Source: Candidatus Babeliales bacterium
GTDB lineage: Bacteria; Babelota; Babeliae; Babelales; RVW-14
Direction of reading: 5' to 3'
Length of the DNA: 64,000 nt
Assembly: GCA_019746485.1 (NCBI GenBank)
Contig: JAIERW010000022.1
Coordinates: 3,280 to 67,279 of the forward strand
Positions 3,498 to 54,584 of this stretch are shown one piece after another; the first letter of the stretch is position 1; every line of letters begins with the position of its first letter. The notes below the pieces were generated by a model. That model did not search any database. It saw only the letters and a program-made list of their open reading frames with translations, and was not told the origin of the DNA. A program made the position numbers and the translations under genes.

Positions 3498-3516
3498 AAT
3501 TACCATTTTTCCTGAG

Positions 3517-6237: not shown

Positions 6238-6249
6238 AATTACCGTTCG

Positions 6250-10490: not shown

Positions 10491-10592
10491 ACGTACTCCT
10501 TTTTTTATTTGTTTCAAACAAATAAAAAAGGGGCCAGCTGGCCCCTTGGTGGTACTGTATGAAATTGCAATGTTGAATCGCAATAAAAAAAA

Positions 10593-31846: not shown

Positions 31847-32789
31847 TCTATTTTCACCGCAATTAGTGACCGATGCCTGGCATTTAATTGAAAGTGTTAA
31901 CGCTATTACCTTGCTCACTCACCAAAAGCCGGATGCTGATGGCATGTCGGCATGTGCGGCAATGTCTGCGCTGCTTGAAAAAATGGGTAAGTCGGTTGAG
32001 GTGGTGTACCCATCTGAGCCTGAAATACCACTCAAGCGCCAGGGTGCAAACGTGTTGGTAAACAAACATAAGCAAGAGCCTGATTTGTTAATTATGTTTG
32101 ATACGGCAAATTATGAACGGTTGTATTATCCGTCCGCGTTTCACGAAATCCCCAGCATTAATATTGATCATCACATAAGCAACAGTATTAAAGCGACCAT
32201 CAACTTGATTACTGACCAAGTTTCAAGTACCTGCGAGCAGCTTTATTTGTTGTTGTACTGGTGGGGCCAGCAAGTTGATACGTACATTGCCGAATGTTTA
32301 TTGTTTGGTATGCTCTACGACTGCCAAGTTTTTCATACACAATCTACCCGCCCGCGCACATTGCGCGTTGCTGCCGACCTAGTTGACGCAGGCGCCAATT
32401 TGTTTGAGTTGATGGGCGAGTTGTTGTTTAACAAAAAACCAGAAATTATTACCTTGTGGGGCCGGCTGTTAAGCTCGGTTACTTTTGCGCCCAACCGCAA
32501 AGCTGCCTGGTCGGTTATTCGACAAAAAGATTTGCAAAGCCTTGGTTTGACGCTGAGTTCTACTGTTGGCTTTAGCAACTTTTTAGCTCAGCTTGCCGAC
32601 ATTGATATTACGATTTTGTTTTATGAAGAACAGAACGGCAAAACAAAAGTTTCGCTGCGTTCCAAACAGGCCGATGTTAACAAGTTAGCGGCTCATTTTG
32701 GTGGTGGTGGGCACAAAAATGCATCTGGCATTTCAATTGACAAGCCAATTGATGAAGTAGTGAGGGATGTTACGAGTTTGTTGCAATAA
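31824..32789 (+). CDS. nrnA: DHH/DHHA1 phosphoesterase (NrnA-like oligoribonuclease/pAp phosphatase)
   Basis: THQKPDADGMSA, NIDHHISN and GGGGHKNASG. I use the start MNQHLKND at 31824, which overlaps the tsaC end by 23 nt. The upstream part of the track ORF (from 31704) is the tsaC alternate frame. Confidence 0.85.
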   Translation: MNQHLKNDLFSPQLVTDAWHLIESVNAITLLTHQKPDADGMSACAAMSALLEKMGKSVEVVYPSEPEIPLKRQGANVLVNKHKQEPDLLIMFDTANYERLYYPSAFHEIPSINIDHHISNSIKATINLITDQVSSTCEQLYLLLYWWGQQVDTYIAECLLFGMLYDCQVFHTQSTRPRTLRVAADLVDAGANLFELMGELLFNKKPEIITLWGRLLSSVTFAPNRKAAWSVIRQKDLQSLGLTLSSTVGFSNFLAQLADIDITILFYEEQNGKTKVSLRSKQADVNKLAAHFGGGGHKNASGISIDKPIDEVVRDVTSLLQ

Positions 32790-32817
32790 AAAAAGCTTAA
32801 CAACATCGGGAATAAAC

Positions 32818-33705
32818 ATGATTAAAAAAATTTCAACAGTACTTTCATGTACGCTATTGCTTGCAAATTCAGCGTGGGCAGCAACATTTTCTTTGTCTCC
32901 TGAAGAGCGTGAAAAAATCATAGAGCGCGAACTTGATCGGTGTGAGGGACCGCGCCGTTGGCGCCCGTGGTCAAACGAGGAATATTGTAAGAACATGGCG
33001 CAACCATGGACAGGCAAAACCCCCTTGCATATAGCGATAGAAAAAGGTTACTTAGCAGAGATTCGCACCTTTGCTGCGCAAGGTTACGACCTCAATACTG
33101 CTAATCGGTGGGGTGAAACCTTTTTGCACGATGCAGCGGAGTTGCGCAAATCAGAGGTCTTTGATTTGTTGATTGAGCTTGGTGCTAATCGCTATGTCGG
33201 CGACAAAAAAGGTCGGCTTGCCTGGCCAGAGCGCCAAATGGTGTTGGCGGCACAAGTAGGCGACCTTGAGGTAATGCAGCAGTTGTACGCACCTGGTGCG
33301 AGCCTTGAGGCTTACATGTGGAATTTTCACAATAAAGTTGGGTTGTCCGTGCTACACTTGCTCGTGCTGAGTCGCAACTACGAAGCGTTGCGGTGGGCAT
33401 GCACTGAATTGCGCAGAAAATTCAAATCTCTTAATCCTACGTGTGGGGTTGGCTATGAAAAATGGACGCCGCTTTACTATGCCGAGTATCTGCACGATGA
33501 GCAAGCACAGGAAATTTTGCGTGATTTTAAAGCCCATGTTCGGTATGGGCAGCAGGAAGTGCGTGAAAATGAGCTAGAAGATGATCATGCTCAGCTACCA
33601 CCACATGAAAAATTTGCACTTGGTAGTAGCGTTAAGGCTCTTGAGTCGGTTCCTGGAGGGATTTCTTATAATAGTTCGAGTAACGATGGTTGTTGTATTC
33701 AATAG
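32818..33705 (+). CDS. Secreted ankyrin-repeat protein, type A, ending in the CaaX box CCIQ
   Basis: Signal peptide MIKKISTVLSCTLLLANSAWA. TPLHIAIEKGY. Family motif GRLAWPERQMVLAAQVGDLEVM. The C-terminus is ...SSSNDGCCIQ* (33691-33702). Confidence 0.88.
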   Translation: MIKKISTVLSCTLLLANSAWAATFSLSPEEREKIIERELDRCEGPRRWRPWSNEEYCKNMAQPWTGKTPLHIAIEKGYLAEIRTFAAQGYDLNTANRWGETFLHDAAELRKSEVFDLLIELGANRYVGDKKGRLAWPERQMVLAAQVGDLEVMQQLYAPGASLEAYMWNFHNKVGLSVLHLLVLSRNYEALRWACTELRRKFKSLNPTCGVGYEKWTPLYYAEYLHDEQAQEILRDFKAHVRYGQQEVRENELEDDHAQLPPHEKFALGSSVKALESVPGGISYNSSSNDGCCIQ

Positions 33706-33723
33706 AAAAATATAGGAGTAACT

Positions 33724-34653
33724 ATGATTTCAAAAGTTTCAAAAGTAGTAGCACTTTCTTTATTGCTCGGTAGCCCCGTGTGGGCAGCGTCGAGCAGTTC
33801 ACGAGTGGGTGGGGGCTTGAGCAGCGTGTGCACGTCTGGCGAGAAATGCTTTCTTGCCGTTGAGCGTGGCAATACCACAGCGCTTGCCAAACATTTGCTT
33901 TCGTTACAAATGTCTGCCGATGATGTGCGCAAGCCTCATGGTTCGACATTGCTGCACTGGGCAGTGCTGCATGAACAGCTTGGCGTGATCAAGTGGTTGG
34001 GTGAAAACGGCGATTCTGACTTGGTTAATGCACAAGACAACAAAGGCCGTACCCCCCTGCATCTTGCGGCAAAAAAAAGACAAGTGAGTATCGTCAAGGC
34101 TTTATGGGAGTATTTTGAGGGTGTTGATCTTAACATCCAAGATGAAACTGGTGCAACTCCGGTGCATGGTGCGGTGATGGCAGGGCTCAAAGATACGGTG
34201 CTTTATTTGTGTGAACGTTTTGGGCTTGATGTTGATGTGCGTGATTTTACCGGCTTTACGCCATTGCGCTATGCGACCATAGATCGCTTTGCAAGTATTG
34301 CCGAGCAATTGGCAGTTGTTGATGCACTGATCAAGTGTGGTGCTAACAAAAATGCCTTCAATGCTGCTCCCTATGCTCGTCTGTGCTTTGCAGCGGCTCA
34401 AGGCAATGTGCTAGGCATGAGTGCTGCACTGACAATGGGTGCCGATCTTAACGCACCAGATGCCAAGGGTTGTTCGCCGTTGCATTATGCGGTAATGAGC
34501 AAAAATCTTAATGCAATTGCATTTTTATTAGAACGGCGTGTTCTTATTGACGTAAAAAATAATGCCGGTGAAACGCCATACAACATTGCAGAACAATTGC
34601 AAGATGAGGGTGCAAAGCAGCTTTTGCGGTTTTATTCTGAGCAGTCACGTTAA
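33724..34653 (+). CDS. Secreted ankyrin-repeat protein, type B (no CaaX box)
   Basis: Signal peptide MISKVSKVVALSLLLGSPVWA followed by ASSSS. At least 6 ankyrin repeats (GRTPLHLAAKK, GATPVHGAV, GFTPLRYAT, GCSPLHYAV, GETPYNIA). Confidence 0.88.
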   Translation: MISKVSKVVALSLLLGSPVWAASSSSRVGGGLSSVCTSGEKCFLAVERGNTTALAKHLLSLQMSADDVRKPHGSTLLHWAVLHEQLGVIKWLGENGDSDLVNAQDNKGRTPLHLAAKKRQVSIVKALWEYFEGVDLNIQDETGATPVHGAVMAGLKDTVLYLCERFGLDVDVRDFTGFTPLRYATIDRFASIAEQLAVVDALIKCGANKNAFNAAPYARLCFAAAQGNVLGMSAALTMGADLNAPDAKGCSPLHYAVMSKNLNAIAFLLERRVLIDVKNNAGETPYNIAEQLQDEGAKQLLRFYSEQSR

Positions 34654-34682
34654 CCAAAACTAACTAACAAGGAAAAATATTT

Positions 34683-35561
34683 ATGATAAAAATTACAAAA
34701 GCGTTATTGTGTGTATTGTTGTTGAATGCTGGCCTCTGGGCGGCAAGTTCGTCAAGTTCATTGAGTTTGTCAGATATTTGGGAGGCAAGTTCGTCGAATT
34801 CATTGAGTTTGTCAGAGAGTGAAACAGAAAAGCTTACGGGCGCGATGAAAGAGTTGTCAATCTATGACCGTTACTCTGAAGCGGATAAGTATAGGATTTG
34901 GCAGCAAACGCCTCTTCATACTGCTGCACGCAAGGGTGATATACCTGCCATCATAACCTTAGTTGTTGAGCAAGGAGCATCAATACAGGCAGTTGATTTT
35001 CTGGGTCATACCCCGCTGCATTGTGCTGCTATATATCAGCACAAGCGGCCAGAAGTTTTTGATTTGTTACTTGAGCTGGGTGCCGACCGGTACGCTGTCG
35101 ACAAAGATGGTAAACTTGCTTGGCCAGAAAGGCAAATGTTATTGGCTGCAAAAGCTGGCGACCTTGCGGTGATGGTAAGGCTTTATGAGTACGATGCAAG
35201 CCTTATTGAAGCTCGCGATTTCAGTGTGGTACCAGGAGGCCCGAGTTCAGATGTTTTGCACTATCTTGTATTGAGCCGCAACTACGCGGCTTTGCTTTGG
35301 GCGTGCCAAGAGCTTAAGAAGCGGGGTAAATATTTTTCTTCTTGTGGGAGTCACTGGACCCCGTTGCAATTGGCTGCTGTTTACCAAGATCGGAAAGCAT
35401 GGGATATAGTGCGCCAGTTTGATAATGATTCAAGAACGTCTTGGAATATGGCACATATGGAGCCGTGGTGTGGTAAATATATAACTACGTACTATGCCGA
35501 TGGAGGCGCTGTGACGCGGCCGCGGTATCCGTCCAAGAGCGGTGGATGTTCAATTCAGTAA
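34683..35561 (+). CDS. Secreted ankyrin-repeat protein, type A, ending in the CaaX box CSIQ
   Basis: Signal peptide MIKITKALLCVLLLNAGLWA followed by ASSSSS. GKLAWPERQMLLAAKAGDLAVM. The C-terminus is ...SKSGGCSIQ* (35547-35558). Confidence 0.88.
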   Translation: MIKITKALLCVLLLNAGLWAASSSSSLSLSDIWEASSSNSLSLSESETEKLTGAMKELSIYDRYSEADKYRIWQQTPLHTAARKGDIPAIITLVVEQGASIQAVDFLGHTPLHCAAIYQHKRPEVFDLLLELGADRYAVDKDGKLAWPERQMLLAAKAGDLAVMVRLYEYDASLIEARDFSVVPGGPSSDVLHYLVLSRNYAALLWACQELKKRGKYFSSCGSHWTPLQLAAVYQDRKAWDIVRQFDNDSRTSWNMAHMEPWCGKYITTYYADGGAVTRPRYPSKSGGCSIQ

Positions 35562-35589
35562 AAAAAGCTTATCACGTTCAGGATTAACT

Positions 35590-36657
35590 ATGATTTTAAA
35601 AGTTTCAAAAATATTAGTAGGTGTTTTGTTGCTGGGCAACTCAGTGTGGGCGGCTTCAGGCTCATGGACAAGCAACCTTGATGAGTTTGAGCGTGCACGG
35701 GTAACTGACGAAAAAATGTTTATTGCCGTTGAGTTGGGCAACACAACAAAGCTCGCAGAGTTGCTGCTTTCGTCACAAGCTTCTGCCGGTGACGTGCGCA
35801 ATTACGATGGTGCAACGCTGCTGCACTGGGCGGTACGCCATGGCAAGCTTGATGTTATCGAGTGGTTGCGAAATACCTGTGCGCCAGGTTTTGTAAACGT
35901 GCAAGACAACAAAGGTCGTACAGCATTGCACTATGCAGCAGAAAAAGGGAATGTTGGTGTGGTTAAAGCCTTATGCGAAAACTTTGAGCGCATCAACGTT
36001 AACGCTCAAGATGAGACTGGTGCCACACCCTTGCACGATGCGGCTTTTTTTCGTTCGTCAGCGGCTTTTTGTTGGCTGGTTCAAAACAGAAAAGATATCG
36101 CTTTCAATGCGCAGGACCAAGCAGGTGCCACGCCTTTGCATTATGCGGTGCAAGCGGGACTCAAAGATGCCGTACTTTGTTTGTGTGAACACGGCGATCG
36201 TTTCGGGCTTGATGTTAATGCGCGTGATCTTACCGGTTCCACGCCATTGCACTATGCAACAATAGATCGCTTTAAAGATATTGCTGAGCAATGTGCCGTT
36301 GCTGGTGCACTGATCAAGCGTGGTGCTAACAAAAATGCGCTCAATGTGAAGCGTGAAATGGCACTTGCTCCCCATGCTCGCCTGTGCCTTGCGGCATTTC
36401 TGGGCAATGTTGAAGCAATGAGTGCTGCGCATGCGTTGGGGGCCAATCTTCAGGTACAAGATGCCAAGGGTTGCACGCCGTTGCATTATGCGGTAATGAG
36501 CAAAAATATCTACGCGATGGAATTTTTGTTAGGTCATCGTGTTCAGATTGTGGTAAAAAATAATGCCGGTGCAACGCCAATGAGTATTGCGCAACAGTTG
36601 CAAGATGAAGGTGCCGTGAAGATGCTGAATCTTTTTATCAGGGCGAGCGCGCGTTAA
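35590..36657 (+). CDS. Secreted ankyrin-repeat protein, type B (no CaaX box)
   Basis: Start at MILKVSKILVGVLLLGNSVWA. Collinear with 33724-34653, including FIAVELGNTTKLAELLLSSQASAGDVRNYDGATLLHWAV versus FLAVERGNTTALAKHLLSLQMSADDVRKPHGSTLLHWAV. Confidence 0.85.
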   Translation: MILKVSKILVGVLLLGNSVWAASGSWTSNLDEFERARVTDEKMFIAVELGNTTKLAELLLSSQASAGDVRNYDGATLLHWAVRHGKLDVIEWLRNTCAPGFVNVQDNKGRTALHYAAEKGNVGVVKALCENFERINVNAQDETGATPLHDAAFFRSSAAFCWLVQNRKDIAFNAQDQAGATPLHYAVQAGLKDAVLCLCEHGDRFGLDVNARDLTGSTPLHYATIDRFKDIAEQCAVAGALIKRGANKNALNVKREMALAPHARLCLAAFLGNVEAMSAAHALGANLQVQDAKGCTPLHYAVMSKNIYAMEFLLGHRVQIVVKNNAGATPMSIAQQLQDEGAVKMLNLFIRASAR

Positions 36658-36686
36658 ACAACATTAACTAACGAGGAAAAATAGTT

Positions 36687-37574
36687 ATGATAAAAATTAC
36701 AAAAGTCTTGTTGTGTGCTTTGTTGTTGAATGCTGGTCTTTGGGCTGTTGCGCCGAGCAGTTCGTCAAGAGAAGAAACAGAAGAGCTTGCTGCAGCAGTG
36801 GCTGGGTTGTCCCTTGATGATGCTTCTTGTAACTCTTTGAAGCAAACACTGCTTCATCGTGCGGCCGAACAGGGTAATATACAAGCTATTTACCAGTTGG
36901 TTGTTGAGCAAGGAGCTCCAATGAACGTGGGTGATTGGATGGGTCAGACCCCGCTGCATTATGCGGCTATACGTCAGTATAAGCGGCCAGAGGTGTTTGA
37001 CTTATTGATTGAGTTGGGTGCTGACCGGTACGCGTGCAACAATTGCGGTAAGCTTGCTTGGCCAGAAAGACAAATGCTTTCTGCTGCCGCGTCTGGCAAT
37101 CTTGAAGTTATACAAAGGTTGGTTGACGCAGGTGCTGAATTGGATGTGGATGATGTATTTCAAAATAGGAATCATGTTTTGCACTTTCTTGCGGCGAGTC
37201 GCAATCATGAAGCTTTGCGCTGGGCGTGCCAAGTTATGCGTGACAGCAAGAAAAAATCGGTTGATGTCGAGAATTATGACTGGGTTACGCCGCTGCACGT
37301 AGCTGCATATTATAAAGATAAAGTGGCAATGGAAATATTGATATCGTTTGGTGCCGACAAGTCCAAGTGTGCTCGTGGTGCCTCGTGGGAGAATTATTGG
37401 CACTATCTTGGCGATGAAGTTACGTTTGCCGATGGAGCCAAAGTTAAGGGGCTGCTGCCGCCGCCAACGGTTATTCTCAAGGGTGGTAAATTAAGTAATA
37501 TGACGGCTGATTACCACAATGGCCAAGTTGTACAGTATGGAAATGGTGGTGGTGGTGATTGCGCGCTGTTGTAA
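36687..37574 (+). CDS. Secreted ankyrin-repeat protein, type A, ending in the CaaX box CALL
   Basis: Signal peptide MIKITKVLLCALLLNAGLWA. The leader DNA is nearly identical to that of 34683. GKLAWPERQMLSAAASGNLEVI. The C-terminus is ...GGGGDCALL* (37560-37571). Confidence 0.88.
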   Translation: MIKITKVLLCALLLNAGLWAVAPSSSSREETEELAAAVAGLSLDDASCNSLKQTLLHRAAEQGNIQAIYQLVVEQGAPMNVGDWMGQTPLHYAAIRQYKRPEVFDLLIELGADRYACNNCGKLAWPERQMLSAAASGNLEVIQRLVDAGAELDVDDVFQNRNHVLHFLAASRNHEALRWACQVMRDSKKKSVDVENYDWVTPLHVAAYYKDKVAMEILISFGADKSKCARGASWENYWHYLGDEVTFADGAKVKGLLPPPTVILKGGKLSNMTADYHNGQVVQYGNGGGGDCALL

Positions 37575-37592
37575 ATTAAGATTGGAATAACT

Positions 37593-40223: not shown

Positions 40224-43200
40224 TTATTGAATTGCGCACCAAGTACTTGATGAAGCTGGTGCTGCTGGCGCGGGATCATCTTGAATTTGAGATTCTTGAA
40301 GTGCGCGTGGTGTGGCTAGAGGATCGAGTATCATGAATTCTGCCACCGTTTCCTGGAGTCTGCGTTTAGCTTCTAGTTTGATGGTATCATCGTTCATAAA
40401 CGCTTGTAATCTTTCAATACCATAAAACTCTCCGGTCACGTGCTTGCTTGTTGCAAGAATTGTTTTGATAAGTAGATCAGATACAGCAGATATATCCCTT
40501 GCTATTCCCGTCATCTGAATACGAAGCAGTGCACTTTGTAAGCCCTTTTCAAATGCTTCACCGTGCTGAGCAAGTTTTATAAAAAGCCTCAAGCTTTCCT
40601 GTTTGAGCGCAGCGTCTGCATTTGCGCTACTCGTAATATGACTTACTCCTGCAAATCGATGAGTCATGCAAAAATAAGCTGCCTCGGCTGCAGGCTTAAA
40701 TGCAACGCTGAGTCCGCTTTCTACAAGTTTGGTGAGAAGCTCTAATGGTTTTTTGTGGCTCATGCTATCCATAAAGAGATCGATAGTTGCTTGGTGAGCA
40801 TAGTTAGCGGCTTCTTCGATTGAGTGACCATTTTTAGTAAGGAGCCTGTACCATTCGAGTGCTTTAACGCGTTTGCTGATATCGGGCTCAGGTTGTGGAT
40901 TTCTCATTATGCGAGCCATTAAAGGTAATTGGGTAGCGGTGGCATAGCTGGCAGTAAGCTTCTTTAATTCATTAATTGCAGGTTCGTGGTGGTGTGCAAC
41001 AAGTTTCTCAAGAATTGCCCAATGCTGTTCACGTGTCCTATAATCTTTATGTGCGCAGTGTTTGAGTGCAGTATGAGTAAGATTTTCCAGCATTTGGTGA
41101 TCACCGGTGCTGTGTGCTATCACTACACATTGTTCTAGAATTTGCGCTCCTGCATAGGTTGAATGTGTTTGATTGCTCAATTTATCAACAAAGTCATGCA
41201 GCGTGTTCTTAAATTGTGGATTTTTTGTAAATCTTTGAACAGCAGTTAAATGTTCTACCAGAATATTTGCAAGACTTCTTTGATAAGCAAGATCTTCGGT
41301 TAGTTCAAATGATGTAATAAGTTGTGAAAGCAAAGAAATACTATCTGAGGTTGTGTCAGGGTTTTGCATGATCGTTCTGACAATTCTAAGCCTCGTACGC
41401 ACATCTAAAAGGTCACACATAAAAAGTAATCGGTAATGCGCATAGCGTGGTTCAAGCCCATAAAGATTGGAAAGCATGAACAATACTGGGTCAGCGTTGT
41501 CAAAAAGTTTGTTGTTCATATATTCAGCTAGATTGTTCTGATACGCTTCTTTTGCCTCTTGGCCTTCCATGCGCTCGGCATAAGCATGATTCAATGGATT
41601 AACAAAAATGGTAAAAAATGAACGAGCTTTTTTGAGCAAAATTGTTTGACCAATATTTTGATTATCAAGTTTTTTTAAGTCGAAATTTGGGGCGGCTAAT
41701 TCCCAACCACATTGTTGGCATACGCGTGCAAAATAGGTTGCATTAAAGTTTGCATCAAAAAAGACATCATTTAGTTCGCTCGAGGGTGTTGCTGACGAGC
41801 TTGCTGCTTGTGCTTCAAACAAGTTAAGTCCGAGCAAGTCATTGAGCATGATAATAATATTTTGCATCCATGGCATAATTTCATAGAGCTGATAGCCAGC
41901 ATCTGGCGCAACAAGAAGGAATTTGTTGCCGTTTACCTTTAACGTTTCCAACGTAATATCTTGGCTGTCACGCTTAAAGGTGACTGTTGAGCGTTTAGCA
42001 TTGTCTGGTATTGCGCCGCCTGGAAGTTTTATAAAACCACAGAATTTTTTCTTACCCTTTTTGTCGGTAATTTGTGTGGCATCCATTGTGTAGGAACTGC
42101 CTGGTAGTTTAATTTTGGCATAGGTAATGTACGGTTGGTTTTGAACAAGGTTGCTCCAGTCTTGGTGGACTTTAAGTCTGTTTGTATCATCTTCTGCATT
42201 GTTAGTTGCGTCTTGTGTTTTTGTTGCATAAAAATTATCGAGTTTTTCGGGCGCGTTAGGTGTGAGCAGTTTGTTGCCAAAGGTACGTGTTTCTTGGTCG
42301 TATGTTGCAATGTTACACAAATTGCGAATGGTTGTTTCTACGCAATCGGCAACCTTAACAACGTCAAACATAACGGTTGCATACTCAGGCAAGTAAGGGA
42401 TTGATTGGCCAAACTTTTGGCACATAAGCTCGGTATACACAACATCTGCCAGATTGGCATGGTTGGTGAGGTGATCAAAAATATCTTTGCCGTCAAGATG
42501 GTTTAAGCTTTCTGCCATGGCCTGTTGAATTTCTTTGTGGGCATTGTCTTCAAACATATCCGTACCATTAAGATTGTGCGCTTCTGGCGTAAGAAACTCT
42601 TGTGGCAACGATTGCACATAAGCAATCAAGTCATGTTTATCGTGTGCTTTTCTGTAAAGCCAGGTCAGCAAAATATGTTGGGTAGCATAGTGTTCATAAG
42701 CCCCTCGATAATTTTTTTCGCTTGGCTCAAAAACACTCGGGATGAGCGATGAGCTTGCTGGGTCTGCCGGTGCTGGCTTGCATTCGGCCAGCGAAGCAAT
42801 AATCAAATCAACAAATTTTGCAACATGCACGTTCTTTTCGATTGCTTCCAGTTTTGAAAGTGCTTGCTTAATTTTCGGTGCATCAATTTTGACTTGTAAA
42901 ACAAAAATTGCTTCATCAAGATTGAATAGTTGTCTTGCTTGTGCTTCTTTTTTTCTTGCTGCGCGTGATTTTAAGTAGTTTTGATGGCGAGCGTCACGCG
43001 CTTCTGGGCTATTGTCATGGTGTTCATGTGTCAAAATACCATTTGTGGTACGTTGTTTTTTGGTTGTAAGTTCGGCTTTTTGTCTGCCAAAGCGTTCATG
43101 TTTTCTCGAATGTTGCGGTTGTTTGTCGTTTCTGGTGCAAAGTCTCTGTGCTGTATTTTCTGGCGCGGTTTCCAAGCGTCCGCGTTTTCTTGAAGGCTGT

Positions 43201-46900: not shown

Positions 46901-47993
46901 CTACATTGGTTGGTGCGTACGAGCTGGACGATGAACTTGAGCTGGATGAGCTAGATGACGAGCTGGATGATGATGTGACGGCCGTTACCGGTAAACATTC
47001 GTTACAGGCTCTTACCAAGAGCTGAGCAAAGGTTTCAAGTTTTTGAAAGATGGTGTCTTTAAATTTTTGTGCCAACTCGTTGCGGCGCGCGTACTGGCCC
47101 AGCTCGGTGATGAGCAGAGGAACGTTAACTTCTTGTTGTTGGCGTTGTCGTTTTTCACTGCGTGAAGATGGTGCTGACGAGGTGTCGGGAGTCATTTCGT
47201 TACGACCACGTTTAGGCCGAGCGTCATCTGACACTGCTAAAGCAGCAGCTGACGATGAGCTGGAACTTGAACTCGAGCTAGCGCTTGTGGCAGAAGCAGC
47301 GCCAGAGCTTGTGGCAGACGTGGTGCTTGTTGCTGTGGTGGCGCTAGAGCTTGTAGTAGATGCGGCGCCAGTGCTTATGCCAGAAATTGGTTGGTTTTGG
47401 TGTTTGCGGAGAGCATCGATAATGTCATCAATTTTAGCGTCTTTTTTAAATGATTGCTTGGTAACATTTTGTGCTCGTGTTTTGAGGGTACCAAGTTTTT
47501 GTTGTGTGCAGGTTGTGCTCAATTCTTTTAGTTCCACATATTCTTGGTAATCAGTTGTCAGGTTGGCAAAGTGTGGCGATGCTTGTTGAAAGTCAGCATC
47601 ATTCACGAGTGCTCGTACGATGGCGTTAGCACGCGTTCGCTCATCAGCATTTTTGTTCAACTCAAGTGCGTTGAGCATGCTGCCCACGGTGCCGATTGAA
47701 AAAAAGCGACACGGAATATCTTTTTGTGCTGGCGCAAAGCCACCCGGCGTTGCATTAAAAAGCTTTCTGATCAGTTGAACCGTTGCATCGTCAGGGTTAC
47801 CAAAGTGGTACAACTTTTCGATGTAGCGCATTTCAATGCCAAGCGCACCGCAGGCGGGCGACAAGGTAGCTCGATGCTCGGGCTTAAAAATATTCCACGT
47901 GCCTTTAATATCTTTGACATTGCCAGGTTGGGCAATAGTTGCCAAGCCAAGAGCAAATGTGACAACGGTTGAAAGTAAACGTAAAAACTTCAT
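43914..47993 (-). CDS. Giant secreted effector-like protein, paralog 2 of 3. It has two poly-Ser tracts, KRGR/KRQR motifs, a Cys/His domain and an extended HEAT-like repeat region
   Basis: 1359 aa. Signal peptide MKFLRLLSTVVTFALGLATIAQPG. Motifs ADCVETTIRNLCN and RHAYAER. Repeated units of the type D..VR..A..LF..L....Y.PAF.AATQAA. Confidence 0.88.
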   Translation of the reverse strand: MKFLRLLSTVVTFALGLATIAQPGNVKDIKGTWNIFKPEHRATLSPACGALGIEMRYIEKLYHFGNPDDATVQLIRKLFNATPGGFAPAQKDIPCRFFSIGTVGSMLNALELNKNADERTRANAIVRALVNDADFQQASPHFANLTTDYQEYVELKELSTTCTQQKLGTLKTRAQNVTKQSFKKDAKIDDIIDALRKHQNQPISGISTGAASTTSSSATTATSTTSATSSGAASATSASSSSSSSSSSAAALAVSDDARPKRGRNEMTPDTSSAPSSRSEKRQRQQQEVNVPLLITELGQYARRNELAQKFKDTIFQKLETFAQLLVRACNECLPVTAVTSSSSSSSSSSSSSSSSSSYAPTNVDDFVYRPYTAQHALLAFAYKKANAKNDFVPFFKKLDQQFFIDDITFDQTWQNDVYAEDAHVKIHADFITNFAGKSGQEIFATCAGNAFTDVVLTEVRRQLYSQTIPVLPENREAYFETFRVADCVETTIRNLCNVVTYNKETATFGNHVEGLALAPELAAFYSTERNRLESKTDALEVRQDWGNIVQNLPHITYGRAKLPTNNDFYFAAPNDTCGFIKLAGIRASEAHTTDITLSPLDHNGNAIAGGTPHTFEQITVNGSSYVLVGDDYHLFEVMPSIKNIVIMMNQFFNLDLFGAAPGQPSSSSAPAASLEADFFKPDFNSQSFEKLCAKLNWGVEHNVLAQLDNEHIPELRLTLTQGRVAPFTLCIMPGRHAYAERPLNSIPLVAHQKALQQYLCSQIKTKAGACETLLFDLYKSNEVAWGFSGLYRYFTRNLFSGETKSAVINSIIENTRTSLALTSLASQLIKTMPVAADFQAQRSIATHLHMNLDFVKANKNNKQLKEAIAHLAQQTSEQTNYLLQIGVFEKLMTTLIELNMKQELEVCMQLATNNVSNVDRWTREPACKILKALIKGNYQPAFDAATQAAATNATHTDPRVREQAHELFTALFEQGHQKAADAATTCVANNIDHDDEVMRNSMINLVAALLSPPTAREVIEHSAKHYMNHPKGYFRFLALDGFAHLVNKKHQSAFKNALEAAKDNIIYQDCQRDEKTQSFHSPSFAIGNATTKVFSALFAQNFEPAFEAAHKAIKENLCNEKRVIRAWALKLLKKLIQTDYSSKNESVNIYAYELASELAKSRHSVYVNHALVLFQALVKTNYEKAYQDATITATANIQNIDREIQFSVQELFTSLFEKNHQPAFEAATQAATDNISHENTVIQGSGLSLFKNLIKHNYKAAFAPATQAVQTIMQAPPKYSENTLLDLCVELVEKDYEPAIASATTVAEQSDRSFFLSRALKKHKQQTCDDLSQKNSTTSSLSSSSSATSSSTPVTDDE

Positions 47994-48005
47994 GATAACC
48001 TCTTT

Positions 48006-51000
48006 TTAAATCTTGTTAATGCGTATTTTATCAATAATATCCTGTACCAATTCTTTAATTATGGGGTTTGCGTGGTGTGCAAATTTGTTGGCAGCTTCGC
48101 GTGCTGCGGTGAAAGCTACTCTTTCTGCAACGAGTAAGTTGAATATCATAAGTCCATGGCGAATGGTGTTTGGGTTAGTACTGCAAGTAGCTTTTTTTGC
48201 TGCCTGTTCTGCCTGCTCAAACCCAAGGTCTTTCATAATAAATAATGCAAAAATTTCATAAGCAAAGTTTTGAATTTCTGGGTTGGCATGGTGTAAGGTA
48301 TTGTTGGCAGCAAAAAGGATAGTGTTGATGTTTGATAATTGTTTGATAAGCCGTTCTTCTAGCAGTTGATAAACGAGGGACCTAATTTCTGAGTATTCAT
48401 AATTCATATTAAGTATGATAAATTGGTCTGCCAATTTGTAGGCTGGTTCATAATCGTTTTGCATAAGCGCTGAGATAAGGAAAAATTTTTTTCTTATCAT
48501 ACTTCTGGTTGATTGACTCATATTATTTTTTACCAGCTCATGTGCTACATAATACGTTTCTTGATTCTCGCATTTTTTGACAAGTATAAGGGCCGCTTGC
48601 AGAGCAGTATCTATTTTTTCAGGACCGGCTTCTTGTACAAATTTGTAGGCTAAATCAAAACCTTCTGTTTTTTGACAGAGACATTCTAAAAGAATGGTAG
48701 CTTGCATTTGAGTTTGACAGTCGCTATGAGTTAGACTTTCTAGAGCTGCGTGCAAGGCTGGCTCATGTGCTTTGCCTTGTTTAACAAGGCTTTTAAACAG
48801 GTTGAGTGCTTCTAATCTGAGGTCTTCATCATCGCTTGTGCTATAGTGAGAGGCGAGTTGAATAATTCTTTGTAGCTCTTCTTGCATGTTCAGAATTATT
48901 ACTATTTTTGAGAAGCTTTGAAGAAGAATCAATTGATCTTCTGGATCATTTATTTCGTCTAAAGCTTCAAGCGCTGATTTTTGCAGTGCCTTTTTGAGCA
49001 CATTATTATCTTGGTGACTGACGACAAAATTGATGTTTTGGGAGAGGTAGCTAGTAATGCCGTTGTCGTTTTCATCAGTTTGAGTGATGCGCAATGATGT
49101 CATTAATTGACTCGCAAACGAAATAAAATTCGGGTTTATTTCACGAGGTTTGCTTGTCCTAATGATACGGCGTAAAATTGCGAATTTTGTATCATCATCA
49201 AAAAGATTGTGCATAAAAAAGTTGTTGTGTGTATAAAAACTATGTTCTTTGGGGTAAATTCCAAATTTAATGTTGTAATTTTTATACAAATCCAAGAAAA
49301 GCAGTAAGCGTGGGCTTAATGCATCTTCACGTGATGTTAGGCTTGAACAGAGCTTTTGTTGGTAGGAGGTTGGTTTGTATTCAGTATTTAAGCGTTCGGC
49401 ACACGCGTGTATTCCTGGTCTGATATAAATTTCAAAAAACGCTTTGCCTTCTTTGCCTTCATCTTCTTGGCTGAGAGTTTTTTCTAGTTCTAGTGTTTGT
49501 TCTTTGTCTTCTTCGTCTAGCTCATAATCATCATTCAGAACCCATCCGCATGCGGTGCATAGGTCTTTAAAGCGTGGTGAAGTAAATGTTGAGCTAAAAA
49601 AATCATTTGCTATGGAACTTGGTGAAGGTATGCCAAGAAGGTGGTTAGTAATAATTGTAATATTCTTGAGTGATGCTTTAATTTCAAAAAGCTCGTAGTG
49701 GTCGTCTTGGATAAGAATGTATGAATGGTTGTTGATCGTAAGAGTGTTAAACGTATGTGCCGCTTGCTTAGTTACTCTCTGTGTTGCTGAATCGTGTGGA
49801 ATAATTTTGGCAGTCCCGTGTTGAGCATCGCTAGGGACTGTGATATTGTTAAGCTTGATAAAGCCATCTAAGGTATCTGGGCATTCAAAATAAATTGTTG
49901 TGTTGTTAGCAGGTGTTGCTAATTGATAGGTTATATTAGGCAAGTTTTGAATGAGATCGCTCCATTCCTGATGAACTTGTTGCATTCCTGATGTATCTTC
50001 TTTTCTGTTAAGTAGATTGTTTTGAAAAAATGTGTTGAGTTCTGGTGTAAGAGTAAGGCCGTTGGCGTTGCCAGCGGTTCGTGTAGTTTTGTTGTTGGTG
50101 GCAATTCTGCACAGGTTGTTTATGGTATTTTCTACGCAGTTACTAAATTTTATTCCCTTGAAGCAAATTTTTTGATGGCGTGTTAAGCACGGAATAGTTT
50201 TACCGTACAATTGACGTCTTATTTCAGTAAAAACAATATCGGTAAAGTCTGCTGTTGCAAGACTTGCAAAAGCTTCCTCTTCTGATTTTCCGGCTAGGCA
50301 AAGCTCAAGGCTTGCATGAATGTTGGTGTGCTCATCGTCAGCGTACAAATCGCTGTACCAAGCTTGTTCAGGTCGCGAGCCTGAAACAAAGAAGCTTTCA
50401 TTGAGTTGATTAAAGTAATCAGCAAAATTTTCTTTAGAATCTGTTTTTTGATAAATCCAGGCAAGAAGGGCGTGCTGGGCCGTGTAAGGCCGGTACACTA
50501 AGCTATCGTGTAACCTGTAACTTGGTTCTGGTAGTAGTGAAGAAGAAGATAGAGCTGAAAGCCTAATTATATTCGCCGTGTATTGATAGTGGCACTCAGC
50601 ACAAGCGTCAATAAGTAACTGTGTAAAGTCTAGAATGTGTTTATAGATAGGCATTTGTTTGGTGTTAAATTTTTTTGCCAATTGTTCCAACTCTGCGTGC
50701 GGTTTTAAACCTTCAATAATTTGAGGGACTGTGTACGTTTCTTTTTGGCGCTGTCTTTTTGGTACTTTTTCTTTGTGAGGACTTCTTGGTCGTTGTCTTT
50801 TTCTGGAGTAGTCAGTTTCATCATTTTCAGTATCTGAGAAAAAGCTTTGAGAAGACGATGACGAAGATCCGCTGCTTGAAGAAGCACTTGTGTGTTGTGT
50901 GCTGATGTGACTATTTTCTTTTTCAAGAGTTTCTATAATTTTTGCCAACGGAGCTTTTCTTAAGGTTGGGTTATTCAAAAATTCAAGGGCTTTTTGCTTA

Positions 51001-51509
51001 AAGAGACTAAATTTATCATTTGATCGATCCAGCTCTTTCTTGAGCCTGAGGAACCTAACAAAGTCTTTGGCATTTTGAGTAAAAGCTGGATTGTTGAGGT
51101 TTTTTTGAAAGTCTTGATCATTTACCAGAACGTTTATAAGTGGATAAAAAGCCAAGGATAGAGAATTTTTATACGTTTCTAGAACATTCAAAAGCTTGCC
51201 AACAGTTGCTCGAGAAAAATACCGAGCAGGAGAGCTAACTTGCGTTGGTGCAAAGCTGCCAGGCACCACGTGAAACAGTTGCTTAAGTAATTTTATCGTT
51301 GCATGCTCTGGGTTACCAAAGTGATAGAGTTTTTCCAGGTACTTCATTTCAATACCAAGAGCGCCACAGGCTAGCGAGAGCGTGAGGCGGTGTTCAGGCT
51401 TTAAAACGTTGTCGGTACCTTTGAGGTACTGAACATCGTTGGGCTGGGCTGTTGTGCTCAAGCCCAGGGCAAACATAAGAATAGTTGAAAGTAAACGTAA
51501 AAACTTCAT
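48006..51509 (-). CDS. Giant secreted effector-like protein, paralog 1 of 3 (first gene of the operon)
   Basis: 1167 aa. Signal peptide MKFLRLLSTILMFALGLSTTAQP. SSSSGSSSSSS...SRKRQRPRSPHKEKVPKRQRQK. Motifs SNCVENTINNLCR and IHACAER. GGAGG RBS. Confidence 0.88.
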   Translation of the reverse strand: MKFLRLLSTILMFALGLSTTAQPNDVQYLKGTDNVLKPEHRLTLSLACGALGIEMKYLEKLYHFGNPEHATIKLLKQLFHVVPGSFAPTQVSSPARYFSRATVGKLLNVLETYKNSLSLAFYPLINVLVNDQDFQKNLNNPAFTQNAKDFVRFLRLKKELDRSNDKFSLFKQKALEFLNNPTLRKAPLAKIIETLEKENSHISTQHTSASSSSGSSSSSSQSFFSDTENDETDYSRKRQRPRSPHKEKVPKRQRQKETYTVPQIIEGLKPHAELEQLAKKFNTKQMPIYKHILDFTQLLIDACAECHYQYTANIIRLSALSSSSLLPEPSYRLHDSLVYRPYTAQHALLAWIYQKTDSKENFADYFNQLNESFFVSGSRPEQAWYSDLYADDEHTNIHASLELCLAGKSEEEAFASLATADFTDIVFTEIRRQLYGKTIPCLTRHQKICFKGIKFSNCVENTINNLCRIATNNKTTRTAGNANGLTLTPELNTFFQNNLLNRKEDTSGMQQVHQEWSDLIQNLPNITYQLATPANNTTIYFECPDTLDGFIKLNNITVPSDAQHGTAKIIPHDSATQRVTKQAAHTFNTLTINNHSYILIQDDHYELFEIKASLKNITIITNHLLGIPSPSSIANDFFSSTFTSPRFKDLCTACGWVLNDDYELDEEDKEQTLELEKTLSQEDEGKEGKAFFEIYIRPGIHACAERLNTEYKPTSYQQKLCSSLTSREDALSPRLLLFLDLYKNYNIKFGIYPKEHSFYTHNNFFMHNLFDDDTKFAILRRIIRTSKPREINPNFISFASQLMTSLRITQTDENDNGITSYLSQNINFVVSHQDNNVLKKALQKSALEALDEINDPEDQLILLQSFSKIVIILNMQEELQRIIQLASHYSTSDDEDLRLEALNLFKSLVKQGKAHEPALHAALESLTHSDCQTQMQATILLECLCQKTEGFDLAYKFVQEAGPEKIDTALQAALILVKKCENQETYYVAHELVKNNMSQSTRSMIRKKFFLISALMQNDYEPAYKLADQFIILNMNYEYSEIRSLVYQLLEERLIKQLSNINTILFAANNTLHHANPEIQNFAYEIFALFIMKDLGFEQAEQAAKKATCSTNPNTIRHGLMIFNLLVAERVAFTAAREAANKFAHHANPIIKELVQDIIDKIRINKI

Positions 51510-51622: not shown

Positions 51623-51651
51623 ATTCTAACAGAAATTTAAATTTATGTAAA
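51623..51651 (-). promoter_or_regulatory. Strong sigma-70-type promoter candidate for the giant-protein operon
   Basis: On the minus strand: TTTACA, then a 17-nt spacer, then TGtTAGAAT (extended -10). It lies about 110 nt upstream of the ATG at 51509. Confidence 0.6.
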
Positions 51652-51723: not shown

Positions 51724-52656
51724 TTAGTCTTTTTGAGAAAAAATGGTCTGATCCAAGAAGCGCAGCACCTTCTTTTGGTACATTGGCGCATGGTACGTAT
51801 GCAGCCAGCCGTGGCGGCAGCGGGGGCCTATCCACAACCGAGTGTCTTTGTTTTGGGCAACGGCATACAGCTGCAGGCTGTTTTCGGGGTTTATAAACTT
51901 GTCGTTGCAGGAATGAATGAATAAAATGGGCAGTTTAATCTTTTTTACGCTTTCAACGGGGGACATGTTGTGGATATCGCAATTATTAACATAGTGAAAC
52001 ATGGCGCGTGCGATAGGGAAAAATGGGTAGTAGGGCAAGCCAACTTTCAAGTTAAAGCCGCGCAAAAACATTGTCTTAAGTTCTGAAAACGTGGAGTCGA
52101 TAATTAATGCATCGCATAAATCTTGTTTTACTTCTGCTGCTTTAAGTGCGGAAGCGCCGCCCATGGAAATACCCAACACAACCAAGCGCAATTTATTGTC
52201 GTAATGTTTCATAAAGTCTGCCGCAGCAATAACATCTTTGTACTCATGGCAACCAATCGAGGTGGTACTGCCAGGGCTTTGGCCGTGCGCGCGAAAATCA
52301 AAGATCAAAATGTTGTATGTTGGAAACATGTCTATCAGGCCGTACATAAACTCTTTGCAGCCCTGGTAGCCATGACACAACACTAAATTTGCTTGTGCGT
52401 GTGGTCGCGCAAAAAGCAGGCCTTGTAATTCAAAGCCATCGCTTGTTTCAAACATGACATGTTTGACATCGTTGCGTTTGAGCAACTCATTGCGAATATC
52501 AATGGTTAATGTAGAAAGTTTGGTGCCATAAATAATACGGTCGCCTGCGCTGACAAAGCGGTAGACGGTGTAGTACGAAATGCCCAGCACGGTCATGAGT
52601 GTGATAAAAAAGCAGCCGAGCGCAATAAAAAATGAACTGCGCGAAAAGTGTATCAT
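51724..52656 (-). CDS. Membrane-anchored alpha/beta-fold hydrolase
   Basis: N-terminal TM segment. Nucleophile elbow GISMGGASA. LCHGYQG oxyanion region. C-terminal His in RCRHGW. Its start overlaps the stop of the upstream HIT gene (ATGA). Confidence 0.8.
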   Translation of the reverse strand: MIHFSRSSFFIALGCFFITLMTVLGISYYTVYRFVSAGDRIIYGTKLSTLTIDIRNELLKRNDVKHVMFETSDGFELQGLLFARPHAQANLVLCHGYQGCKEFMYGLIDMFPTYNILIFDFRAHGQSPGSTTSIGCHEYKDVIAAADFMKHYDNKLRLVVLGISMGGASALKAAEVKQDLCDALIIDSTFSELKTMFLRGFNLKVGLPYYPFFPIARAMFHYVNNCDIHNMSPVESVKKIKLPILFIHSCNDKFINPENSLQLYAVAQNKDTRLWIGPRCRHGWLHTYHAPMYQKKVLRFLDQTIFSQKD

Positions 52657-53024
52657 TACAGTTTCAATCCCTGTTCATAAACATTTCTTCCTGCCAAAAA
52701 ATGCCAGTGAAGATGGAAAACACTTTGCCCAGATGCGCGGCCATTGTTGCTGACAATATTAAATGACGGTGGTGTTGCAAGCGTTGTGCTCAGTTCTGTG
52801 ACCATGTTCACCATGGCAAGAGCAAAGTCGTTGTCTGTTGGCGTTAATGCACTCATATCAGCAATGTGTTTTTTTGGAATAATTAAATAATGAATTGGTG
52901 CTTTGGGCGTGATATCTTGGACAACGACTACACATTCATTTTCAGTGATTTTTTTTGCGGGAAGAGTTCCCTGAATGATTTTACAAAAAATACATGAAGC
53001 GCTTAAATTTTCTAACACTTCCAT
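52656..53024 (-). CDS. HIT-family protein (Hint-like histidine triad nucleotide-binding protein)
   Basis: CIFCKIIQG...[14 protein letters not shown]...HLHWHFLAG. Confidence 0.9.
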
Positions 53025-53044
53025 CCTTTTTCCTTAGAGCTCTG

Positions 53045-53212
53045 GGGCGCGTCCTTCGAGACGTCTTGCTTCGCCAAGGCTTCGCCAGACTCCTCAGGAT
53101 GAGCGGGCCTATATATCTCATTTAAGAGAGGTGCCTGTCCTCCAAAGCCACCTGGGCGTAGGAGGAGCCTGCCAGCTGAAGCTACAAGCGCTTTAGCGCG
53201 CAGAGCGTAAGC
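53045..53212 (-). repeat. Full composite copy of the modular repeat (T, P and S modules) directly 3' of tRNA-Leu
   Basis: The minus strand reads GCTTACGCTCTGCGCGCTAAAGCGCTTGTAGCTTCAGCTGGCAGGC (T module), CCTACGCCCAGGTGGCTTTGGAGGACAGGCA (P module) and CCGCTCATCCTGAGGA...GTCTCGAAGG (S module). Confidence 0.75.
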
Positions 53213-53299
53213 TGGTGCCGAAGGTCGGACTCGAACCGACACGGTGTCGCCACCGCGGGATTTTGAGTCCCGTGCGTCTACCAATTTCGCCACTTCGGC
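53213..53299 (-). tRNA. tRNA-Leu (anticodon CAA), CCA encoded
   Basis: GCCGAAGTGGCGAAATTGGTAGACGCACGGGACTCAAAATCCCG + long variable arm + GGTTCGAGTCCGACCTTCGGCACCA. I folded the cloverleaf by hand. Confidence 0.92.
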
Positions 53300-53375
53300 A
53301 TGCCCATGTAATTACGCACTATGCTACCAGAATGCTGCATAACGTCAAGAGTTTTGCATGCTTTTTTAAGGTTTT

Positions 53376-54584
53376 TTAAAGTGTGCTGGCCAAATTGAAG
53401 ATTGGTAAATAAATGCTTAGCATCAAAATAGTAATGATTATGCCTACCAGGATAAGCAAAAGTGGGTTTGCAACGACTGTTAAAATATGCAGCGAGCGTG
53501 CTAGTTGTGTTTGCAAGGCAATCAGCATTTTGTCGAGCATGAGTGCCAGCTTGCCTGTTTGTTCGCCGGTTGAAACAAACGCAATAACATCATCAGGAAA
53601 GTAGCGCGTGCCACTTTGTTTAAGCGCTTTTTCAAACGATTTGCCTTGCGTGATAGCGGTGCTTATCAACTCCAGCTGATGCTTAAATTCTCCGTGCTGT
53701 GCGGCTTGTTGAGCAACGGTTAGTGCCTGGCTGAGTGTGGTGCCGCTTTTGAGCAGCATAGAAATCATTTGAAACGAGTAGATCAAGTTTGAGTAGAGCC
53801 ATATTTTACGCACAAACGGTGTGCGTGCTACCAACCAGTCGGTTGCTGTTTTAACGCGTTCAAGTTTGAGCAGTAGGCGCGTGAGCGCTATAAAGCCGGG
53901 AATGCTTAGCCACACCAGCAAGCCTGCCGGTGCGCGCAAAAACGAGCTCAGCGCAATAATGTGCCGTGTGAGTGGTGGCAGCTCTTTGCCGGTGGACGTA
54001 AACAGTTCTTGAAACTGCGGGATAATAAAAATCATGATACAGCCAACAATGAGCAGGGCAAACGTGAGCGTGATGCCGGGCAGCAGGGCTGCTTGCTTGA
54101 GCTTTTTGGTTAGCTGGATGCGCTGCTGCAGGTAGGCAACAATGGTATAAAACGAGTCGGAAAGTTTACCCGCGGCTTGGCCTGCCTTGACGGCGTTGAT
54201 AATAAACGGCGAAAATGCCCCTGTTTGCTCGAGAGCGTGCGAGAAGCTATTGCCGCAGGTTATTTCTTTTATCAGGTGCTGGGCGTGACCCTTGAGCGTT
54301 TGGTTGCTGGTTTGTTTGGCGACCAGTTCAAGCGCGTGTGCAAGATCTATGCCGCTTTCAAGCAGGAGTGCCAATGTTGCAAAAAAGCGTTCTAGTTCTT
54401 GTGGGGCGAGTTTTGTGCGGCTCAAATGCAAAAACGAGAAGAGTGGTTTCTTTTTGGCATACGACAAAAGGGCTATCTGTCGGTCGAGTAGTTCTTTTTT
54501 GAGCGCTTCGGGTGTAACCGCCTCGTGGTAGCCGTGTTGGTTGTTGCCGTGTGCGTCAATGCCTTTCCAAAAAAACGTTGGCAT
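53376..54584 (-). CDS. Type II secretion / type IV pilus inner-membrane platform protein (GspF/PilC family)
   Basis: 402 aa with two repeated T2SS-F-like halves and 3 TM segments. The N-terminus FFWKGIDAHGNNQHGYHEAVTPEALKKELLDRQIALL is typical of PilC/GspF. Confidence 0.85.
   Translation of the reverse strand: MPTFFWKGIDAHGNNQHGYHEAVTPEALKKELLDRQIALLSYAKKKPLFSFLHLSRTKLAPQELERFFATLALLLESGIDLAHALELVAKQTSNQTLKGHAQHLIKEITCGNSFSHALEQTGAFSPFIINAVKAGQAAGKLSDSFYTIVAYLQQRIQLTKKLKQAALLPGITLTFALLIVGCIMIFIIPQFQELFTSTGKELPPLTRHIIALSSFLRAPAGLLVWLSIPGFIALTRLLLKLERVKTATDWLVARTPFVRKIWLYSNLIYSFQMISMLLKSGTTLSQALTVAQQAAQHGEFKHQLELISTAITQGKSFEKALKQSGTRYFPDDVIAFVSTGEQTGKLALMLDKMLIALQTQLARSLHILTVVANPLLLILVGIIITILMLSIYLPIFNLASTL

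Follow-up and report, generated by a model that had tools for sequence, protein, structure and literature searches.

Why a bacterium should encode three giant secreted proteins side by side, and what the conserved domain shared by all three might do, are the questions raised by the locus studied here. It lies in a stretch of 64,000 nucleotides (nt) from a Candidatus Babeliales bacterium (contig JAIERW010000022.1; hereafter, the window) and comprises three genes:

Gene 1: 48006-51509, minus strand, 1167 amino acids (aa), the NCBI hypothetical protein K2X40_04275 of Candidatus Babeliales bacterium
Gene 2: 43914-47993, minus strand, 1359 aa
Gene 3: 40224-43901, minus strand, 1225 aa

Gene 1 is identical to K2X40_04275 of a Candidatus Babeliales metagenome-assembled genome (MAG), Babeliales being part of Dependentiae/TM6. 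Bacteria of the Dependentiae are found widely, and all cultured ones are parasites of protists. To our knowledge, host manipulation in this group is essentially unknown beyond counts of ankyrin proteins. We read the locus as one transcription unit for three paralogous, Sec-exported and host-directed proteins of Babeliales, which belong to a large unannotated family and join a thiol-enzyme-like core to solenoid adaptors; our probability for this reading as a whole is roughly 0.5. The family itself, with its architecture, its size and its unannotated status, is plain from the data described below.

The three genes run in the same direction and are separated by gaps of exactly 12 nt, AAAGAGGTTATC and CAGGAGGTTATC. 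A ribosome-binding site of the GAGGTTAT type stands in front of each gene: the gap ahead of gene 2 includes GAGGTTAT, and GGAGGTTAT is found both immediately 5' of the gene 1 ATG and inside the gap ahead of gene 3. This spacing agrees with the first-pass annotation, made from the sequence alone, which had also placed a single promoter upstream of gene 1. Among the promoter-like sites between 39400 and 52800, that site shares the top score, with 10 of 12 hexamer matches, and it is the sole one with an extended TG. Promoter-like sites are no more frequent over this interval than shuffling predicts (24 observed vs 23.9 expected), and hence the site counts by its position alone. At the other end, a G+C-rich terminator-like hairpin begins 14 nt past the stop codon of gene 3. 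It is absent from the first-pass annotation and contains a one-base bulge, which is why a pattern scan overlooked it.

51623-51651, minus strand: promoter-like site TTTACA-17-TAGAAT, TG-extended, a consensus match only, about 110 nt upstream of the gene 1 start
40177-40210, minus strand: intrinsic-terminator-like hairpin GGGGGUCGG...CCGCCCCC followed by a U-run (-18 kcal/mol, z = -3.0)

Altogether, a promoter, three closely packed genes and a terminator plausibly make up a single operon, whose co-transcription is predicted from the spacing. This is also backed by the gene order kept in a second genome. The related MAG GCA_019749895.1 has, in the same order, a type II secretion system protein F, a HIT-family protein, and an alpha/beta-hydrolase, followed by orthologs of gene 1 (74% identity) and gene 2 (61%), the latter cut by the contig end. 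The presence of both orthologs in this MAG indicates that the duplication is older than the split of the two genomes. Within the operon, full-length identities to gene 1 are 38% for gene 2 and 29% for gene 3.

As claimed at first reading, all three paralogs have a common module order, namely a signal peptide, an N-domain, a disordered Ser-rich linker, a core domain, and HEAT-like repeats. The main modules are located as follows:

51447-51509, minus strand: gene 1 signal peptide
51105-51446, minus strand: gene 1 N-domain, residues 22-135 (about 115 aa), directly after the signal peptide
50523-51104, minus strand: gene 1 linker, residues 136-329
49365-50522, minus strand: gene 1 core, residues 330-715, with the Cys458 codon at 50136-50138 and the His701 codon at 49407-49409
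48009-49364, minus strand: gene 1 C-terminal helical region with degenerate HEAT-like repeats
45741-46916, minus strand: gene 2 core, residues 360-751, with the Cys488 codon at 46530-46532 and the His737 codon at 45783-45785
44058-45218, minus strand: gene 2 array of 9 HEAT-like repeats of 38 aa, residues 926-1312
41544-42725, minus strand: gene 3 core, residues 393-786, with the Cys520 codon at 42342-42344 and the His772 codon at 41586-41588
40227-40238, minus strand: CaaX box CAIQ at the gene 3 C-terminus (Cys1222)

The signal-peptide-like N-terminus, MKFLRLLSTILMFALGLSTTA up to the cleavage site and QP after it, has a basic n-region, a hydrophobic h-region and an AxA-like cleavage site, as judged by inspection. 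In the N-domain that follows, a T, a G and an F are invariant across the family. A profile search of PDB sequences with this domain gave no match, and none was found above cut-off in Pfam or NCBIfam. The two-partner-secretion (TPS) domain was considered as its identity and dropped, since the Pfam model would have caught a TPS domain. The gene 1 linker consists of a variable helical segment (about residues 136-200), a poly-Ser/acidic stretch of low complexity, two basic clusters, and a conserved helical segment (about 258-306). Its basic clusters, KRQR(237) and KRQR(251), are 10 aa apart, a spacing that fits a classical nuclear localisation signal of the bipartite type, in which 10-12 residues lie between the basic clusters. 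The corresponding clusters are KRGR and KRQR with a 16-aa spacer in gene 2, and KRGR and KKQR with a 38-aa spacer in gene 3. In the gene 2 ortholog, the basic motif KRGRN...SEKRQR is kept despite the differing Ser tracts around it.

The repeats are clearest in the middle paralog, as had been noted before. Besides the nine copies of gene 2, we found two significant and two marginal copies of the 38-aa repeat in gene 1, and one significant plus one marginal copy in gene 3; the gene 2 ortholog has cleaner repeats than gene 2 itself. Taken individually, the three window proteins score under the Pfam cut-off for HEAT/ARM. A full-length family profile compared with PDB, on the other hand, recovered helical repeats of HEAT/ARM/PPR type (CAND1, AP-3, and designed ARM or helical repeats) at E-values of 1e-8 to 1e-16, and among the matches listed all fall in the C-terminal region. 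Sporadic Pfam matches of family members to HEAT, Adaptin_N, Cnd1 and TIP120 were also seen. The C-terminal region is thus confirmed, at the level of profile comparison, as a HEAT/ARM alpha-solenoid. It shares with CAND1, adaptin, condensin subunits and designed repeats the two-helix units of 38 aa and the signature 'D..VR..A..LF..L', and it differs from other HEAT/ARM proteins in the repeat consensus Y-E-P-A-F-E-A-A-T-Q-A-A, which is specific to this lineage. The variable repeat number upholds the earlier idea of a shared core with diversified solenoid ends. Among the three paralogs, only gene 3 carries a CaaX tail, also as first reported.

The core, about 390 aa long, has several positions that hardly vary or do not vary at all. 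In an alignment of 80 core sequences, numbered as in gene 1, Cys458 and Tyr528 are present in 80 of 80, and His701 and Pro440 in 79 of 80. They are followed by Trp516 (78/80), Asn616 and Phe642 (77/80 each), Asn468 (75/80) and Glu609 (73/80), while Asp457 and His513 are conserved at 80% and 79%, respectively. The cysteine lies in the family motif F-x-D-C-x-E-T-T-x-R-N-L-C-N-I-x-x-Y, with which the gene 2 motif VADCVETTIRNLCNVVTY agrees; genes 2 and 3 both keep the consensus of this Cys helix. Gene 1 and its ortholog P0002 share the changes D457N, R464N, N468R and Y472N (gene 1 residues about 455-476, window 50080-50145) and retain Cys458 and His701. These changes may mean that this copy is partly disabled or has a different specificity. 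As the other Cys columns of the alignment are conserved at only 33 to 70%, we rejected the idea that Cys458 serves in a disulfide.

An AlphaFold model of the core based on the 80-sequence alignment reached a predicted local distance difference test score (pLDDT) of 91.1 and a predicted template modelling score (pTM) of 0.90; a model from only 5 sequences (pLDDT 42) was discarded. The predicted fold is alpha/beta, with a six-helix N-terminal lobe, a beta-hairpin, the Cys458 helix, a sheet-rich region, and a last strand that opens with His701. In the model, Cys458 is core residue 129, the first of helix 129-142, and His701 is core residue 372, the first of strand 372-377. Because an invariant Cys opens a helix and a near-invariant His opens a strand, with a conserved Asp/Asn, a Glu and an Asn nearby, we favour a thiol enzyme as the nature of the core. 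That it actually catalyses a reaction we hold to be nearly an even chance, or slightly short of one.

The first-pass annotation could match the core to no characterised family, and neither could we: a confident match, named there as grounds for refutation, did not emerge from profile or structure searches. In Pfam and NCBIfam, no match of the three proteins passes the cut-off, and the best ones are of low complexity or sub-threshold. A Pfam scan of 50 diverse family members, even at E <= 5, revealed no recurring family outside the solenoid, and a profile search of PDB sequences with the core gave no match. A Foldseek comparison of the core model with 350,542 PDB chains returned nothing under E 0.29, at a template modelling (TM) score of about 0.1. 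Among these results were local matches of 60-80 residues to UFC1, an E2-like enzyme, at a probability of about 0.1; we rejected them because the order of secondary structures differs, with the Cys helix of the core preceding the sheet. Our literature searches turned up no account of this family. Both domains are absent from Pfam, NCBIfam and PDB, and the core, as modelled, appears to have no solved structural relative.

We then asked how widespread the core is. The core profile was run exhaustively with HMMER against the representatives of 1.84 billion clusters (50% identity). At E <= 1e-3 it detected members in at least 381 clusters, a number that falls to 194 at E <= 1e-10 and to 57 at E <= 1e-30. 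The proteins found are mostly 700-1600 aa long. Among 151 members inspected, most share the architecture, with a signal peptide followed directly by the N-domain motif '..I.[LI]KGT', and 103 of the 151 are matched by an N-domain profile that was built from just five close sequences. A degenerate DNA pattern for the Cys-helix motif detected 49 loci in the species genomes of GTDB, of which 36 were confirmed by the hidden Markov model of the core; DNA patterns derived from the close paralogs found no relatives in the genome collection. By the labels of their submitters, the confirmed loci are distributed as follows:

Babeliales, Babeliaceae or TM6: 9 loci
Unlabelled 'bacterium': 13 loci, four of them in one 1.64-Mb chromosome
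Pseudomonadota: 5 loci
Oligoflexia or Oligoflexales: 3 loci
Alphaproteobacteria: 1 locus
Pelagibacter: 2 loci, weak matches
MAG labelled Saccharimonadales: 2 loci
Undibacterium pigrum: 1 locus, an open reading frame (ORF) of 88 aa at E 2e-5, probably spurious

The phyletic check proposed at first reading thus yields a family that is neither small nor private, spread over several bacterial labels and, as shown below, giant viruses. Four of the 8-kb loci hold paired family matches on the same strand, with ORFs that abut (L006, L040) or lie 0.6-1 kb apart (L016, L043). Chromosome OY970257.1 (1.64 Mb) has at least four separate motif loci (L004, L030, L043, L047), so the copy number per genome can be high. 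In the more distant relative P0003, the gene is single-copy and sits amid housekeeping genes.

The core extends to giant viruses. A Foldseek search of a viral library placed first the uncharacterised Yasminevirus protein A0A5K0U8Z2 (E 3.5e-3, probability 1.0, 394 aligned columns), followed by an Edafosvirus protein that is not significant (E 0.18, probability 0.14). In IMG/VR, five ORFs in four giant-virus contigs, three of them named GVMAG, match the core at E 1e-10 to 1e-15, part of each score being ascertainment, as the motif search pre-selects the Cys helix. The matches reach about 170 residues beyond this helix, and the Foldseek result is independent of the pre-selection. The loci concerned are L050, L052, L060, L062 and L066, with two tandem copies in L062. 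Like the bacterial core, the viral proteins have the N-terminal helical lobe and the Cys helix, here [FY][PS]DC[GV]ETT.RN.IN, together with the FY and W motifs, and at least one copy keeps the His motif 'F.V.L..GH'; a strong score is limited to the first half of the core. They differ from the bacterial proteins at both ends. No signal peptide was found in the giant-virus ORFs, the N-domain profile did not match the two viral ORFs tested, and in 3 of the 5 (L050, L052, L066) leucine-rich repeats take the C-terminal place of the HEAT repeats. Viral proteins are made in the host cytoplasm, and the lack of a signal peptide therefore points to the inside of the eukaryotic cell as the core's site of action. 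As far as our literature searches showed, the sharing of this core with giant viruses is new, and so is the swap of a HEAT for a leucine-rich adaptor in at least three of the five viral ORFs.

Further evidence for a host-directed role comes from the window itself. CaaX-type tails occur in 5 of 53 window ORFs of at least 150 aa, when 0.2 would be expected (P = 2e-6, a 25-fold excess), and all five ORFs have signal peptides. One of them is gene 3; the other four are ankyrin-type ORFs on the plus strand:

32767-33705, plus strand: ankyrin-type ORF ending in CCIQ
34683-35561, plus strand: ankyrin-type ORF ending in CSIQ
36687-37574, plus strand: ankyrin-type ORF ending in CALL
37593-38417, plus strand: ankyrin-type ORF ending in CLIL

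These four belong to a row of six consecutive paralogs (32767-38417, plus strand) with signal peptides and common ankyrin-repeat-type motifs, the last of which, the one scanned against Pfam, gave an ankyrin repeat match. A CaaX box is of use only where eukaryotic prenyltransferases exist. The combination of a signal peptide and a CaaX tail therefore looks like a recurrent design of this genome for proteins of the host cytosol, and the CAIQ tail of gene 3 is a candidate prenylation site. We take the prenylated effectors of Legionella to be the precedent for bacterial proteins with such tails. According to published work, TM6 genomes share a conserved type II secretion system (PMC4776705), and in Chromulinavorax, of the same phylum, 44% of the proteins have signal peptides, a set that is enriched in ankyrin-repeat proteins, proteases and nucleases and for which the authors proposed an action on the host (PMC6561590). 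The first-pass suggestion that the three paralogs are host-directed effectors has thus gained support from the assignment to Babeliales, the signal-less viral homologs, the CaaX enrichment and the conserved basic motif, and it is still something we infer.

On this basis, we propose that the three proteins would cross the inner membrane by Sec and then enter the host cell, for which vesicles or the conserved type II secretion machinery of TM6 may be the route. There, the basic clusters of genes 1 and 2 might direct them to the host nucleus and the CaaX tail of gene 3 to host membranes. The solenoid would bind a host partner, on which the core would act as a thiol-dependent enzyme whose Cys and His form a papain-like dyad, or part of a triad, in a fold that has no solved relative. 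Gene duplication would have diversified targeting and adaptor, with gene 1 also having changed four conserved residues of the Cys helix. More tentatively, and with the odds clearly against so detailed a claim, the core might be a thiol-dependent enzyme of new fold whose substrates are host proteins, for example a new class of protease or ligase directed at ubiquitin or ubiquitin-like proteins, or some other protein-modifying enzyme. In that case, it would have been exchanged between giant viruses and several lineages of protist-infecting bacteria, with new targets gained by swapping solenoids (HEAT in bacteria, leucine-rich repeats in viruses) and localisation signals (basic clusters, CaaX).

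The kind of system is already known, as modular effector paralogs in an intracellular bacterium; the new part is the N-domain and the core. We take the nearest kind to be the modular effectors of intracellular bacteria that combine a Cys-His domain, a solenoid and targeting motifs, presumably as in the CaaX effectors of Legionella. The Babeliales proteins resemble Legionella-type effectors in coming from a group of protist parasites and in their CaaX tail, clusters resembling nuclear localisation signals, HEAT repeats, modular build, tandem paralogs and putative thiol centre. Unlike them, they carry a Sec signal peptide rather than a type III or type IV secretion signal. Unlike known effectors, they have a core and an N-domain with no sequence match and a core with no structural match, and that core also occurs in giant viruses. 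The invariant Cys-His pair offers a direct experimental handle on a large unannotated family, whose occurrence in MAGs of several bacterial labels and in giant viruses of amoebae makes it a candidate host-manipulation module traded inside protist hosts. The operon, in turn, amounts to a natural retargeting experiment, in which one core comes with basic motifs of nuclear type in two of the copies and with a tail for prenylation in the other. Should the core turn out to be enzymatic, the effector repertoire would gain a new catalytic domain, and a new family of Pfam rank would be added.

Several points weigh against a host-directed thiol enzyme. Foldseek recovered no papain-like structure for the core, and no peptidase was among its top 50 matches. 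No third residue of a triad could be assigned: no conserved polar residue follows His701, the domain stops about 15 residues later, and the candidates Glu609, Asn616 and Asp457 all precede it. As for targeting, a CxxX C-terminus is found in 3 of 151 family members, which is about chance, and we consequently rejected the CaaX box as a trait of the family. The basic clusters, like the basic linker as a whole, are missing in the more distant relative P0003. Finally, Sec export alone takes a protein only to the periplasm, short of the outer membrane and any host membrane.

A rival reading is a non-catalytic scaffold or adaptor, in which Cys458, His701 and perhaps Glu609, His513 and Asp457 hold a structural metal or the fold, and the proteins act by binding host factors through core and solenoid. 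Solenoids of the HEAT/ARM type serve for binding, Foldseek recovered no known enzyme fold, and the conserved D457, E460, H513, E609 and H701 could make a metal site with Cys458. Moreover, gene 1 is maintained despite four lost residues of the Cys helix, with the same changes in its ortholog. Against this stands the lone Cys conserved at 100% at a helix start, together with a His conserved at 99% at a strand start, a combination that classically marks a thiol nucleophile and its general base. Zinc sites, for their part, usually need three or four equally conserved ligands, and H513 and D457 fall well short of Cys458 in this respect. We therefore consider a scaffold unlikely, if worth keeping in mind.

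A role in the bacterial envelope would place the three proteins in the periplasm or at the cell surface, for adhesion, envelope maintenance or nutrient capture, and never in the host cytosol. A Sec signal peptide alone sends proteins to the periplasm or the outer membrane, no dedicated translocation signal was identified in the three proteins, and the signal-peptide proteins that make up 44% of all Chromulinavorax proteins (PMC6561590) cannot all be effectors. The giant-virus homologs, which have no signal peptide and are necessarily made in the host cytoplasm, and the CaaX context, with a tail on gene 3 that is useful only beside eukaryotic prenyltransferases and a 25-fold excess of such tails on signal-peptide proteins of the window, weigh against this explanation. 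So do the conservation between orthologs of a basic motif resembling a bipartite nuclear localisation signal, and the lack of any beta-barrel, lipobox or cell-wall anchor in the three proteins. Hence, we regard an envelope function as quite unlikely.

With a host-directed thiol enzyme as our preferred reading, its relation to known enzymes has to be considered. As in clan CA peptidases and deubiquitinases, the core Cys precedes the His and, in the model, is the first residue of an alpha-helix after Asp/Asn, while a beta-strand of a sheet-rich lobe begins with the His. Unlike in clan CA, there is no sequence or Foldseek similarity, no conserved Asn/Asp follows the core His, and about 240 residues, including a six-strand sheet, separate Cys and His. 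Ubiquitin-directed effectors are common in intracellular bacteria. The Cys and His features of the core, with an Asp right before the Cys (F-x-D-C-x-E) and a His that follows a hydrophobic strand in 'F.I.L...H[GA]', presumably recall the Cys and His loops of clan CA enzymes. That the core is simply a very divergent member of a known papain-like family (an OTU-, USP- or NlpC/P60-like deubiquitinase or amidase) is nevertheless improbable in view of the Pfam, NCBIfam, PDB and Foldseek results, the last obtained with a model of pLDDT 91.

Directly upstream of the operon lies the block conserved in the related MAG, with the T2SS-F gene three genes upstream of the operon in both genomes:

51724-54584, minus strand: T2SS protein F, HIT-family protein and alpha/beta-hydrolase, with their counterpart at L055 6968-9825

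Directly downstream, at 38495-40140, a thioredoxin reductase gene on the minus strand and a peroxiredoxin gene on the plus strand are arranged divergently; they represent ordinary redox housekeeping with no evident link to the operon. A second tandem trio of paralogs (738-8967, minus strand; 922, 906 and 905 aa; gaps of 10 and 12 nt) has signal peptides, short repeats of the 'NSNA' type, a near-identical middle part and a C-terminal WD40-like beta-propeller. The Pfam propeller matches were mostly under cut-off in the one copy scanned, and the trio looks like another expanded secreted family. The window also encodes another ankyrin-repeat protein, of 476 aa and with a signal-peptide-like N-terminal region (9153-10583, minus strand).

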